Positions 23,910 to 27,071 of a stretch of 64,000 bases of DNA are shown piece after piece. The notes under the pieces are model-generated. The model worked only from the letters and a program-made list of their open reading frames with translations. It had not been told where the DNA came from and made no database searches. This DNA is from Tissierellia bacterium (GTDB lineage: Bacteria > Bacillota > Clostridia > Tissierellales > Peptoniphilaceae): the NCBI GenBank assembly GCA_030529425.1, contig JAUMWX010000004.1, forward strand, positions 78,629 through 142,628, in the 5' to 3' direction. The first letter of the stretch is position 1, and each line of letters starts with the position of its first letter. The translations under genes were made by a program, and so were the position numbers.

Positions 23910-24650
23910 TTATTCAACTATTACCTTTTCAATTTTTACATCTTCTAAAGGTCTGTCTTGGGCATTTCTTTGAACTTTAGATATTTTCAATACAACATCC
24001 ATTCCTTCAACAACATGTCCGAAAACAGTGTGTTTTCCATCCAAGTGGAATGCTCCTCCAACCTTTTCATAAAAATTGATAACTTCATCAGGATATCCAT
24101 TTTCCGCTCCGGCTTCTTTCATCTTTGAAATTATAGACGGATCGATTGAGTTGGTAGTAACTATAAAAAATTGCGAACCGTTTGTCTTAGGCCCTGCATT
24201 TGCCATTGATAAAGCTCCATAAAAATTTCTGTGATATACGCTTATTTCATCTTCAAAGGGTGCTCCATAAATACTTTCTCCTCCTCTTCCGGTACCTGTA
24301 GGATCTCCTCCTTGAATCATGAATCCTTCAATAACTCTATGAAAAATCACTCCTTCATAGTATCCGTTTTTTGCATGAGTTACAAAGTTCTCAACGGTTT
24401 TAGGTGCGGCATCCGGAAACAATATAAACTTTATATCGCCCATGGTAGTTTTCATGGTTACCTTTACATTTCCTTGTTTATATCCTTCTTCTTGGTTTAA
24501 TTTTACCATCTCTCTTTTTTCTCCTTTTTGATCTTTACCTGTTTCCTCTTTTTTATTCTCCACTTTTTTGTCTTCATCTTTTTTGTTTGGTGAACATGCA
24601 GATAAAGCAAGTGAAAAAACTAATAATAAAAATAATAATTTTCTCTTCAT
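23910..24650 (-). CDS. ppiB: Cyclophilin-type peptidyl-prolyl cis-trans isomerase, lipoprotein.
   Basis: Lipobox LALSAC after [15 protein letters not shown]-rich linker, then the cyclophilin core [26 protein letters not shown]. Start placed at M14 with a GGAGGA SD. Confidence 0.85.
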
Positions 24651-24715
24651 CGTTCCTCCAAGTTTTTTATCTCTTAATAAGAGTAACAAAAAAGAACTGA
24701 AATTCCAAATTTAAA

Positions 24716-25951
24716 TTATCTGTTTCCGTTTGGAAATATATTTATGTCCGGTATGGTTTTCGGAAATTTTGAAACATTCAAAAGAGATGCAAATGTTATT
24801 GAAGTCTCACCAAAATTTTTTCTTATACTAAATAGGGCATCATCCAAATTTTCTTTTTTTATCCTGTATGAATAATCCTCCAAGAAACATAATTGCGTAT
24901 CCGACAGATTATCAATAAGCTTGAAAGTTCTGATGCTTAAAGCTCTTACCGGCATGTTCCAAGTATATTTTCTTCTGAATAAATTAAATGCTTTCTCAGC
25001 CAAAATATTTGAGGATTGAGTAAACATATTAATATCCTCCTGAAAATTGTGATAGTTCAACCTGCTGTCTCTTATATATATTTGAATTCCTCCGGCTTTT
25101 ACCGAATGCTTTCGAAGTCTGTTTGAAATCTTGAAAGAAAGTAATCTCAAAACTGAAAACACTTCATCATTATTTATAAGATCTTCGGAACATGTACTTC
25201 CATTGCCTATACTTTTCATCGGCTCTTTATAATTTAAATCCGCAACCTCCGAATCATCCAATCCGTTAGCATAGTTCAAAAGTTTTATGCCGTTTATCCC
25301 AAACTTTCTACCTATAAAATCACGACTTGTTCTTGCCAAATCACCTATTGTGTGGATCCCATAATAATTAAATTTCTTTCCGGTTGATTTTCCAACTCCT
25401 AAAAGCTCCTCGACCTTTAATTTCCAAATCAGTTCTTTAAATTCATTTTTGGATATCTCGGTAACTGCATCCGGCTTTTTCATATCACTTCCCAGCTTGG
25501 CAAAAACTTTATTGAAACTTACCCCTATACTCACCGTAATTCCCAGCTCAGTTTTTATCCTTTTCCTTATTTTTTCGGCGATGTCAATACCGCTTCCATG
25601 CAGCTTTTGAGAACCGGAAACATCCAACCAACACTCATCAAGGCCGAATGCCTCAACTTGATTGGTATAATCGTAATATATATTTCTTGCCATTTTGGAA
25701 TATTTCAGATACTCTTGGTAATGCGGCTCAACAATAATCAGATTGGGACATTTTCTCAAGGCTTGCCATACCGTTTCTCCGGTCTGTACGCCGTAATATT
25801 TCGCCTCTTGAGATTTGGCAAGAACTATTCCGTGTCTGTTTTTAATCGATCCGCAAACCGCAATCGGTTTATTTTTTAATTTTGGATTTAATTTTGCCTC
25901 AATAGAAGCATAACAATTGTTCATATCTGCATGTAAAATCACTCTATCCAT
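24716..25951 (-). CDS. Y-family DNA polymerase (DinB/UmuC-like translesion polymerase).
   Basis: MDRVILHADMNNCYASIE ... GLDECWLDVS match the Y-family palm motifs. Start placed at M32 with a GAGGT SD. Divergent from the XRE/ImmA pair. Confidence 0.8.
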   Translation of the reverse strand: MDRVILHADMNNCYASIEAKLNPKLKNKPIAVCGSIKNRHGIVLAKSQEAKYYGVQTGETVWQALRKCPNLIIVEPHYQEYLKYSKMARNIYYDYTNQVEAFGLDECWLDVSGSQKLHGSGIDIAEKIRKRIKTELGITVSIGVSFNKVFAKLGSDMKKPDAVTEISKNEFKELIWKLKVEELLGVGKSTGKKFNYYGIHTIGDLARTSRDFIGRKFGINGIKLLNYANGLDDSEVADLNYKEPMKSIGNGSTCSEDLINNDEVFSVLRLLSFKISNRLRKHSVKAGGIQIYIRDSRLNYHNFQEDINMFTQSSNILAEKAFNLFRRKYTWNMPVRALSIRTFKLIDNLSDTQLCFLEDYSYRIKKENLDDALFSIRKNFGETSITFASLLNVSKFPKTIPDINIFPNGNR

Positions 25952-25976
25952 AATTACCTCATTGACATTACACGCA

Positions 25977-26028
25977 ATTTTAGCTAAAATATGCGTAAGA
26001 TATTTTCTATATATTATATTACGCATAT
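25977..26028. promoter_or_regulatory. Operator-like palindromes in the divergent promoter between the Y-family polymerase and the XRE regulator.
   Basis: Perfect 14-bp palindrome ATTTTAGCTAAAAT (about 25977-25990). 10-bp inverted repeat ATATGCGTAA ... TTACGCATAT (about 25989-25998 and 26019-26028). No Cheo (GAAC-N4-GTTC) box seen. Confidence 0.45.
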
Positions 26029-26087
26029 TACTTTCTATAGTCAAGCATTATTTTAAAATGCGAAACTTACTTTCTTTGGGAGGCTTT

Positions 26088-26483
26088 ATGAACTTTGGGG
26101 AAAAATTAAAAAATCTGAGAGATAAACATAATCTAACTCAACAGGATTTGGCAAAAAAACTTAATGTTTCTTTAAGGACAATTACAAATTATGAAACGGG
26201 AGGAATGAGACCTAAAAGTAGAGATATTTACTATAAAATGTCCGAAATTTTTGATATAAATGTAAACTATCTGCTTACAGAAGAAGAAGATTTTATTTTT
26301 AAAGCAAAGGATAAATTCGGAAATAAAGGAAAATCGGATGCGGAAGAGATCCTTAGAAGTGTAATAGGTCTTTTTGCGGGAGGAAAATTGGATGAAGAAG
26401 ATAAAAAAGCAGTTTTTGAAGCCATTCAGGAAGCGTACTTCATATCCAAATTAGAAAATAAAAAATATTCAAAGAAGGACTAA
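26088..26483 (+). CDS. XRE-family HTH transcriptional repressor.
   Basis: MNFGEKLKNLRDKHNLTQQDLAKKLNVSLRTITNYETG is a classic XRE/Cro HTH. GGGAGG SD. The track ORF was trimmed to M58. Confidence 0.8.
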   Translation: MNFGEKLKNLRDKHNLTQQDLAKKLNVSLRTITNYETGGMRPKSRDIYYKMSEIFDINVNYLLTEEEDFIFKAKDKFGNKGKSDAEEILRSVIGLFAGGKLDEEDKKAVFEAIQEAYFISKLENKKYSKKD

Positions 26484-26484
26484 A

Positions 26485-27000
26485 ATGAATTTTTATGACA
26501 GAATATTTAAAGATGCCCTACTTCTGAAAAAAAAATATTGCACAAATGACCCACACATGATTTTAAAAGAACGAGGAGTTAGGTTAATCCCTTTTTCCAA
26601 AAATACTAAACTTTTAGGCATGTATAAAATAATAAAAAGAAATCGTTTTGTATTCTATAATCCGTTTATAGATAAAAACATGTTAAAAATGGTCCTTGCT
26701 CATGAGTTGGGACATGATTTATATCATAGAAAAGAAGCGAAAAAAAATGATATTCCCGAATTTACTCTCTTCGACATAAATACCGATATGGAATATGAAG
26801 CAAACCTGTTTGCCGCAAATCTTTTATTGGATGAAAACGAAATTATATCTCACGCCAATATGGGATATACTTATATTCAAATCGCAAAAATTATGAATGT
26901 GAACATAAATCTGTTGTTGTTCAAGTTGAATGAAATGAAAAAAAAAGGATTGAAATTAAACCATTTTGACTATAAGATAAATATCTTTGAAAACATTTAG
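26485..27000 (+). CDS. ImmA/IrrE-family zinc metallopeptidase (DUF955, COG2856).
   Basis: HEXXH motif HELGHDLYH. Start lies 1 nt after the XRE stop, indicating translational coupling. Confidence 0.8.
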   Translation: MNFYDRIFKDALLLKKKYCTNDPHMILKERGVRLIPFSKNTKLLGMYKIIKRNRFVFYNPFIDKNMLKMVLAHELGHDLYHRKEAKKNDIPEFTLFDINTDMEYEANLFAANLLLDENEIISHANMGYTYIQIAKIMNVNINLLLFKLNEMKKKGLKLNHFDYKINIFENI

Positions 27001-27007
27001 TAATAAA

Positions 27008-27047
27008 ATATATCCCGAGATAATTTTAAAATTGTTTCGGGATATAT
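27008..27047. terminator. Bidirectional terminator (ATATATCCCGAG ... TTTCGGGATATAT hairpin).
   Basis: Hairpin between the convergent ImmA gene (plus strand) and the DagK gene (minus strand). T-rich on both sides. Confidence 0.6.
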
Positions 27048-27071
27048 TTCGTTTTGAAAGAATTTTATTTG

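Follow-up and report, generated by a model that had tools for sequence, protein, structure and literature searches.

A portable three-gene cassette of anaerobic Bacillota in which an ImmR/ImmA-type repressor–metallopeptidase pair is predicted to gate a UmuC-like DNA polymerase

To our knowledge, all systems examined to date keep their error-prone polymerase silent with a repressor that can be cleaved, and the cases that we know of all rely on S24 autoproteases, namely LexA, HdiR and UmuDAb. HdiR, in which a helix-turn-helix (HTH) domain is fused to S24, controls umuC in Lactococcus lactis and, in Streptococcus uberis, a mutagenic cassette (PMC8565304). In the integrative and conjugative element (ICE) ICEBs1, ImmA cleaves the ImmR repressor between residues F95 and M96, within an acidic loop (PMC6868357). 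According to the CapP papers, ICEBs1 ImmA responds to RecA or RapI by a route that is not understood, and ImmA-type proteases are RecA-dependent in the single case studied. An in-silico note by Aravind et al. 2013 (PMC3765255) places M78/DUF955 peptidases beside the genes of translesion polymerases and suggests that they might carry out a proteolytic step linked to SOS. Apart from this neighbourhood note our literature search gave reviews, and it found no experimental study of a Y-family polymerase under the control of an XRE/M78 pair. Here we analyse a 64,000-nucleotide stretch of the chromosome of an uncultured Tissierellia bacterium (contig JAUMWX010000004.1; hereafter the window), which carries a 2.3-kb cassette of three genes encoding a Y-family DNA polymerase, an XRE repressor and an ImmA-type peptidase.

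We propose that the three genes form a self-contained cassette that can move horizontally and makes mutagenesis inducible, with an ImmR/ImmA-type switch gating the UmuC-like polymerase, a reading that we regard as reasonably probable. The ImmR-like XRE protein would bind four CGCAWWT half-sites overlapping two face-to-face sigma-70 promoters, keeping the polymerase gene off and limiting its own xre-immA operon. The co-translated ImmA-type peptidase would be activated by a DNA-damage signal, probably via RecA or single-stranded DNA, and would then cut the C-terminal domain of the repressor, predicted near F96/A97, with loss of repression and release of the polymerase promoter, P_pol. The pair would fill the role that LexA has for umuDC and that the fused HTH-S24 protein HdiR has for streptococcal umuC. 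The module would derive from the ImmR/ImmA master switch of conjugative elements and phages, with the polymerase as its sole visible output here. An earlier note on this DNA, made from the letters alone, had read the locus as protease-triggered derepression of a mutagenic polymerase; that reading is supported, and within it we infer both the proteolysis and the induction by damage.

The polymerase gene occupies 24716–25951 on the minus strand and encodes 411 amino acids. Its true start is the ATG at 25951–25949 (MDRVILHADMNNCYAS), with a GAGG ribosome-binding site ahead of it (25957–25960, minus strand), and its stop lies at 24716. Pfam assigns IMS (1.8e-44, over the full-length profile), IMS_C (4.3e-15) and HhH thumb domains, and the catalytic carboxylates D9 and D104-E105 align with D8 and D103-E104 of E. 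coli DinB, which confirms membership of the Y family. Residues 9–11 form a DMN motif that we take to resemble UmuC. The best NCBIfam score is to the Pol IV subfamily PRK03103 (320 bits, under its 381-bit cutoff), and the only NCBIfam cutoff passed is that of the Pol IV equivalog PRK02406; the protein also matches PHROG 1268 (2.4e-79). No gene for an accessory subunit of the Pol V-like kind (UmuD, YolD or a small partner open reading frame, ORF) was found adjoining the polymerase gene, the window as a whole showed no S24 gene, and a plasmid search with the polymerase at E ≤ 1e-40 found no Enterococcus or other characterised plasmid. The TTG at 26044 that the ORF lister had taken as the start was rejected as an over-extension that would swallow the promoter region. 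Automatic calls similarly stretch the polymerase to 436–442 amino acids via upstream TTG or ATG codons (window 25952–26044; homologous locus L087, 6231–7541), and because public gene calls extend it in this way the promoter/operator region lies hidden within an annotated coding sequence.

The repressor gene (26088–26483, plus strand; 131 codons) is preceded by a GGGAGG ribosome-binding site at 26078–26083 on the same strand. Its product has an N-terminal HTH_3 domain (Pfam, 1e-12) and a conserved C-terminal domain in which Pfam detects no Peptidase_S24, showing the HTH only. It matches the DNA-binding domain of ICEBs1 ImmR (7t8i, 2.7e-7) and a full-length 129-residue regulator (9sf2), in keeping with the earlier assignment to XRE-type HTH proteins. 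The C-terminal half is conserved across 91 unique homologues, in which the motif GL[F/M]AGG and the acidic run behind it hardly vary. By analogy to the ImmR cut site, the codons for L95-F96-A97-G98-G99 (26370–26384, plus strand) mark a predicted cleavage site, with F96/A97 as the obvious candidate cut position.

The TAA stop of xre ends at 26483 and the peptidase ATG lies at 26485, a 1-nt gap from which, read directly off the sequence, translational coupling had rightly been proposed. The peptidase gene (26485–27000, plus strand) encodes 171 amino acids that match Peptidase_M78 (PF06114; 3.7e-10, 40.1 bits against a gathering cutoff of 22) over profile positions 3–122 of 123. HELGH is encoded at nucleotides 26701–26715, and H73, E74 and H77 of this HEXXH motif, together with E103 as the downstream Glu of the zinc-ligand set, are invariant in 35 homologues. 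In an AlphaFold model (pLDDT 86.7) the top Foldseek matches, which are PprI/IrrE (8sln, 3dte) and CapP (7t5t), have a probability of 1.00 over 165–176 aligned columns. All 171 residues align with the peptidase and helical parts of these 240–278-residue targets and the GAF domain is absent, so that the protein is of the ImmA subtype and not of the IrrE/CapP subtype. A homologue from phage phi105 is 33% identical (2e-10), PHROG 87 'metallo-protease' matches at 8e-22, and homologues with 50–63% identity occur in Anaerococcus and other Tissierellia; a sequence search of the PDB returned a marginal CapP match only (E = 0.034). Profile, fold and invariant catalytic residues agree with the HEXXH ImmA/IrrE (COG2856) family named in the earlier note.

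The polymerase and xre genes diverge from an intergenic region of 136 bp (25952–26087), the size given earlier for the shared promoter region and the span scanned here for promoters, repeats and palindromes. Two sigma-70-type promoters lie face to face within it. P_xre (25962–25990, plus strand), which reads rightward to xre, joins TTGACA (25962–25967) to TAAAAT (25985–25990) across a 17-nt spacer and, with 11 of 12 consensus positions, is the best match in the region; P_pol (26016–26044, minus strand), with TTGACT (26044–26039), a 17-nt spacer and TAATAT (26021–26016), matches at 9 of 12 and reads leftward to the polymerase gene. Homologous intergenic regions all have a near-consensus promoter at the position of P_xre and keep a minus-strand TTGACA at that of P_pol. 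The predicted start sites, near 25997 on the plus strand and 26009 on the minus strand, are about 12 bp apart and facing, not back to back, and each transcript would have to cross the other promoter (window 25962–26044; likewise in every homologous intergenic region, for example L074, L090 and L030), an arrangement that would add transcriptional interference to repression.

Four predicted operator half-sites overlap or adjoin these promoters, clustered at irregular spacing. Half-site 1 (ACGCAATT, 25972–25979) lies in the P_xre spacer and has at most one mismatch to AAAATGCG or its reverse complement. Half-site 2 (ATATGCGTAA, 25989–25998), just 3′ of the P_xre −10 box, and half-site 3 (TTACGCATAT, 26019–26028), which overlaps the −10 box and spacer of P_pol, are the left and right arms of an inverted repeat, whereas half-site 4 (AAAATGCGAAA, 26055–26065) sits upstream of the P_pol −35 box in the xre leader and shares a 27-nt direct repeat with half-site 3. 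With up to one mismatch allowed, AAAATGCG is the commonest intergenic 8-mer, with four copies in alternating orientation at 25973, 25988, 26022 and 26055. It is the clustering that stands out: the window as a whole holds five copies of ATGCGWAA, three of them within 75 bp here, and 162 TGCG/CGCA cores, four of them in the 136 bp; the inverted repeat with its 10-bp arms has a P of about 0.01.

The best available evidence that these repeats are the operators of the repressor is that the core of the repeat follows the recognition helix of the protein. The helix VSLRTI[T/S]NYETG pairs with an ACGCA core in the window, in L030 and in L086; L030 is an Aedoeadaptatus locus whose repressor is 62% identical to that of the window and shares its recognition helix, and the core of half-site 1 is also that of the ACGCAATT repeats in L030. 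The VSLKTISRYE helix of Anaerococcus repressors pairs with AAGAC/GTCTT, the ISPRTLQNYEMG helix with CGAACG, and further helices with other cores. The earlier note had offered as candidate operators a perfect 14-bp palindrome (ATTTTAGCTAAAAT, 25977–25990) together with the inverted repeat. Both are present, and the repeat supplies two of the half-sites; the palindrome, however, is not significant. Perfect palindromes of this length number 11 in the 64 kb against 9.0 ± 3.1 expected at 32% GC (P ~0.03 per 136 bp), homologues have no counterpart, and its presence mostly reflects the P_xre −10 box, which it contains, between half-sites 1 and 2. It was downgraded as an operator candidate, and the operator is better described as four CGCAWWT half-sites. 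Two side observations concern these repeats. In L087 and L088, two other samples of the species of the window, the A-run just ahead of half-site 4 (window 26050–26060) has one extra A (AAAAATGCG versus AAAATGCG), the sole intergenic difference from the window. The repeats of L061 and L084 have a CGAACG/CGTTCG core and, on visual inspection, look similar to a LexA box of the Cheo type, ACGAATAATCGTTCGT being one example; convergence of the XRE repressor on a site like that of LexA may explain this, or LexA may bind there too.

A scan of a genome collection with the alignment of peptidase homologues retrieved 80 loci, whose neighbours were scored by tblastn. An XRE gene adjoins the peptidase gene in nearly all of them, and at least 43 have a divergent polymerase of the same subfamily; three more have a distant Y-family polymerase and two a downstream, co-directional one. 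The survey of related genomes that the earlier note had suggested finds the trio again in several families: it is present in Anaerococcus, Helcococcus, Aedoeadaptatus, Thermoanaerobacteraceae, Oscillospiraceae, Lachnospiraceae, Selenomonadaceae and Faecalibacillus, with surroundings that are unrelated and change from genus to genus. Every lineage has the same intergenic layout, with a near-consensus TTGACA-N17-TATAAT promoter beside the polymerase start directed to xre, a second beside xre directed to the polymerase, and three to seven copies of a lineage-specific repeat inside or beside both promoters. The intergenic region of the window fits this layout, and on these sequence comparisons the trio is a conserved, portable cassette. 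Many Anaerococcus species have it at one and the same chromosomal position, flanked by purH and by an rRNA methyltransferase gene (PF06962) that overlaps or directly abuts the immA stop.

Two variations among the relatives were seen alongside. In a co-directional arrangement the genes run HTH, ImmA/IrrE, Y-family polymerase (L093, 3578–5996, on plasmid p16192 of Campylobacter sp. RM16192; also L026 and L042); the polymerase is then about 470 amino acids long and, in L026 and L042, 24–29% identical to that of the window. L093 is a small plasmid from a different phylum, with toxin-antitoxin genes as neighbours. In many relatives conserved small ORFs follow the polymerase gene (L074, 2726–4030; L092, 3234–4285; L126, 5277–6333; many of L100–L139), one family being of 83–99 amino acids ending in KWF and another of about 100 amino acids. 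They often precede a gene for a 243-residue protein with a sub-threshold M78 match (ImmA/IrrE in RefSeq) or a SRAP (YedK-like) gene. Pfam at relaxed thresholds gave no assignment for these small ORFs of the relatives, except for the sub-threshold M78 match in the 243-residue one.

The relatives also point to where the cassette comes from. Loci L068–L083 are near-identical in unrelated gut taxa and lie inside a Tn916-like element that carries a Tn916 excisionase gene, a tetracycline ribosomal-protection gene, and CHAP and sortase genes. In Tn916-like elements the polymerase gene leads a tight operon (polymerase, small ORFs, a sigma-like gene, xis) that diverges from xre-immA; related elements without the polymerase retain the remainder of that operon, and in L090, the closest relative of the window peptidase, the polymerase gene is inserted ahead of the xis operon. 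We take the divergence of this operon from the pair to match the placement of ImmR/ImmA relative to xis in ICEBs1. On the Tn916-like arrangement, the pair is an ImmR/ImmA-type element switch and the polymerase is cargo placed directly under it, and the cassette, judged from sequence, derives from mobile elements, its ancestors being ICEs or phages.

When metagenomes were scanned with the polymerase, 78 loci came up, of which 44 have the 1.3 kb or more of upstream sequence needed for use. The regulator is XRE+ImmA in 15 and a divergent HTH_3-Peptidase_S24 protein in 17; one locus shows an XRE gene alone, and in the other 11 the test detects neither. Polymerases with an S24 partner are 43–59% identical to that of the window. 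The XRE+ImmA and HTH-S24 regulators thus look interchangeable on one polymerase subfamily, and it is because the same polymerase is also served by an S24 repressor that XRE+ImmA would be expected to provide damage-induced derepression; this is the strongest argument for that function.

Around the cassette itself, Pfam and a neighbourhood check show housekeeping genes only from 14.6 to 39.6 kb of the window, among them genes for a CoA-transferase, a short-chain fatty acid transporter, a cyclophilin lipoprotein, a diacylglycerol (DAG) kinase, ABC exporters, a LytTR two-component system, CysS, GltX and CdaA. No integrase, excisionase, relaxase or phage structural gene was found in that interval, no element gene or att-like repeat within about 12 kb of the cassette, and no toxin or defence gene near it. 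The absence of flanking phage or ICE genes, and with it the chromosomal setting, is as the earlier note had described; its term 'stand-alone' fits this locus, but the cassette is a portable module descended from an ICE or a phage, and the same pair is the master switch of Tn916-like elements. A strong hairpin with a U-run at 27006–27049 (−23.5 kcal/mol, z = −6.9, with none of 200 shuffles folding as well) terminates xre-immA and, on the other strand, the convergent DAG-kinase gene; from its sequence, it would insulate the cassette on one side. On the other side, the ATG of the cyclophilin lipoprotein gene is 65 nt from the polymerase stop (24650–24716), a hairpin resembling a terminator was not seen between them, and read-through from P_pol into that gene is possible. 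Across the window (1–64000), 42 of the 45 ORFs of at least 180 amino acids are on the minus strand, and xre-immA is among the very few plus-strand units. The CysS protein is 100% identical to a protein from a metagenome-assembled genome and 63–65% identical to that of the nearest named genus, Helcococcus; the synteny of the locus holds in further, independent samples of this species, whose proteins are 99% identical.

The ancestry of the cassette admits another explanation, namely that xre-immA and the first cargo gene are what remained of a conjugative element or of a prophage immunity region once the rest had decayed; such a remnant may still switch, though at the signal of the element, and would have no host function. 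The pair and polymerase do occur inside Tn916-like ICEs, and the pair alone in other contexts of ICEs or integrative and mobilizable elements; phage homologues of the peptidase and of the polymerase exist, the neighbourhood differs in each genus, and the polymerase decays in some Anaerococcus species. A remnant of this kind is nevertheless unlikely: the three ORFs, both promoters and the terminator are all intact, synteny and near-identity are seen in independent samples of the species, and no integrase, relaxase, att-like repeat or other element gene was found in the surrounding ~12 kb. The one site conserved in many Anaerococcus species moreover implies long vertical retention, and an origin from an element is compatible with the proposed mechanism in any case. 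A different alternative keeps the circuit and changes its workings: the peptidase-like protein would be a non-proteolytic, Rir-like anti-repressor, or the trigger would not be DNA damage but, for instance, zinc or redox status, a signal of quorum or infection by a phage. COG2856/XRE pairs do use at least two mechanisms, Rir of phage TP-J34 blocking the oligomerisation of Crh without cleavage, but Rir lacks the full motif (PMC6868357), whereas HEXXH and the downstream Glu never vary in the 35 homologues compared here. As for the signal, ICEBs1 ImmA responds also to RapI, the activity of IrrE depends on free zinc and the window peptidase is without a GAF domain; against this, the output is a lesion-bypass polymerase and the interchangeable partner is an S24 repressor, a type whose characterised SOS members undergo RecA-stimulated self-cleavage. 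It is because the output gene and the S24 alternative point to DNA damage that we infer it to be the signal, and we think a non-proteolytic or differently triggered switch improbable.

Two further readings would remove the regulatory link between the neighbours altogether. If xre-immA were an autonomous toxin-antitoxin-like or defence-regulator module, its adjacency to the polymerase would have no regulatory meaning. Xre/COG2856 pairs are predicted to act with toxins (PMC6868357), PADLOC gives weak matches to capH, capP and RmrA, there is an NCBIfam match to the spr1629 repressor/antitoxin, and some genomes keep the pair though they lack the polymerase. Yet the adjacency recurs across families in two architectures, both promoters are interleaved with the repeats in the shared intergenic region, and no toxin or defence gene is nearby, which makes such a module very unlikely here. 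Most Bacillota Y-family polymerases studied to date are under LexA control, and the polymerase could on that background be an ordinary member of the LexA regulon, with the neighbouring regulators irrelevant. No Cheo box (CGAACNNNNGTTCG) with up to two mismatches was found in or near 25952–26087, as the earlier note had stated; the 64 kb hold four such sites against nine expected, a two-mismatch Cheo-like match stands upstream of just 4 of 71 polymerase relatives, no better than chance, and no convincing box was found upstream of the metagenomic relatives. On the scans of the window and of the 71 relatives LexA control was rejected, and we give an ordinary LexA-regulon gene scarcely any credence. 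The missing box is the support for describing the module as LexA-independent.

Several observations nevertheless weigh against the proposal that the pair gates an inducible mutagenic polymerase. The regulators outlast the polymerase in places: it is absent in A. vaginalis (L011, 5100–5620) and A. nagyae (L019) and split in three in A. porci and strain AGMB00486 (L001/L002/L007, 4193–5442), with xre-immA and P_xre kept throughout, and two ICE copies (L077, L079) combine a truncated polymerase with an intact xre-immA. The polymerase is therefore expendable, and the pair is kept for some other reason too; co-transcription with the downstream rRNA methyltransferase gene is a possible explanation for its retention. 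The half-sites of the window are isolated, with 19, 30 and 37 bp between cores, where relatives have compact 15–17-bp palindromes, and they may be partly degenerate. The peptidase has no GAF domain and so lacks the groove between domains that IrrE and CapP use to detect single-stranded DNA. In the window we found neither homologues of the small ORFs downstream of the polymerase in its relatives, nor the SRAP gene, nor a gene for the 243-residue protein, and the activity of the polymerase may differ from that of a Pol V-like enzyme. Our literature search also found no experimental work on the cassette or a close relative.

With these points taken into account, the switch proposed here is one already described, which mobile elements normally use, and introduces no new principle; here it would be wired to a mutagenic polymerase, where control of the LexA or HdiR type is usual. 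Many anaerobic Bacillota are indicated to use an ImmR/ImmA metalloprotease switch for this purpose, with two types of regulator swapped on the same polymerase, and this swap carries further the argument that control of such polymerases evolved convergently (PMC8565304). Taken further, gating by a repressor and a zinc metalloprotease may be a third, independently recruited proteolytic solution beside the S24 autoproteases of the LexA/UmuD and HdiR/UmuDAb types, packaged as a 2.3-kb plug-and-play cassette that is exchanged freely with an HTH-S24 version and is carried among the anaerobes of gut and skin by Tn916-like elements with tetracycline resistance; we see the case for this wider view as evenly balanced. 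If it is true, the damage signal that mobilises the element would also switch on mutagenesis. The cassette would tie induced mutagenesis to gut conjugative elements that carry tetracycline resistance, and it offers a minimal system of three genes and one output for studying how ImmA proteins without a GAF domain sense damage.

Comparison with the described systems places the locus more closely. The 2013 observation by Aravind et al. differs in being a single line on gene neighbourhood, with no repressor, operator or mechanism, and it may mean the second M78-like gene found downstream of the polymerase in some relatives and not xre-immA. In Deinococcus, similarly to the scheme proposed here, an XRE repressor (DdrO) is cut by an M78 peptidase (IrrE, or PprI), inducing DNA-repair genes without LexA, and the PprI/IrrE structures are the best fold matches of the window peptidase. 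IrrE differs in having a C-terminal GAF domain and in binding single-stranded DNA in the groove between GAF and peptidase (PMC6868357), whereas the window protein ends before any GAF domain; IrrE also controls a dispersed regulon via the RDRM motif from a gene that is not adjacent to ddrO. The CapH/CapP pairs of CBASS and other defence operons likewise set an HTH repressor and an M78 peptidase upstream of and opposite to the operon that they control, with induction by DNA damage, and resemble the window genes both in the weak PADLOC matches and in the fold match to 7t5t. CapP, in contrast, has a GAF domain and a cysteine switch, and the outputs are immune systems; a polymerase output is unmentioned in the 2022 CapH/CapP preprint and in the 2026 CapP preprint.

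The HdiR-umuC systems of S. uberis and L. lactis share with the cassette a dedicated, cleavable repressor of phage-type HTH design over a UmuC-like polymerase, independent of LexA (PMC8565304), and relatives of the window polymerase carry a divergent HTH-S24 partner of the HdiR design. They differ in that the window repressor has no S24 domain, cleavage being assigned to a separate zinc metallopeptidase, and in the small downstream ORFs and SRAP gene of the relatives, which are absent from the window. From ICEBs1 ImmR/ImmA the locus differs in lacking a mobile element and a nearby RapI-like activator, in its promoters, which are predicted to lie face to face, and in its output, a translesion polymerase in place of xis and transfer genes. 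Otherwise the likeness to ICEBs1, and to the phi105 pair, runs through the whole module: the XRE repressor directly precedes an HEXXH M78 peptidase of about 170 residues without GAF, the pair diverges from the operon that it controls in ICEBs1, the acidic, Phe-containing loop of the window repressor stands at the position of the F95/M96 cut site of ImmR, and close relatives of the window pair head Tn916-like ICEs.

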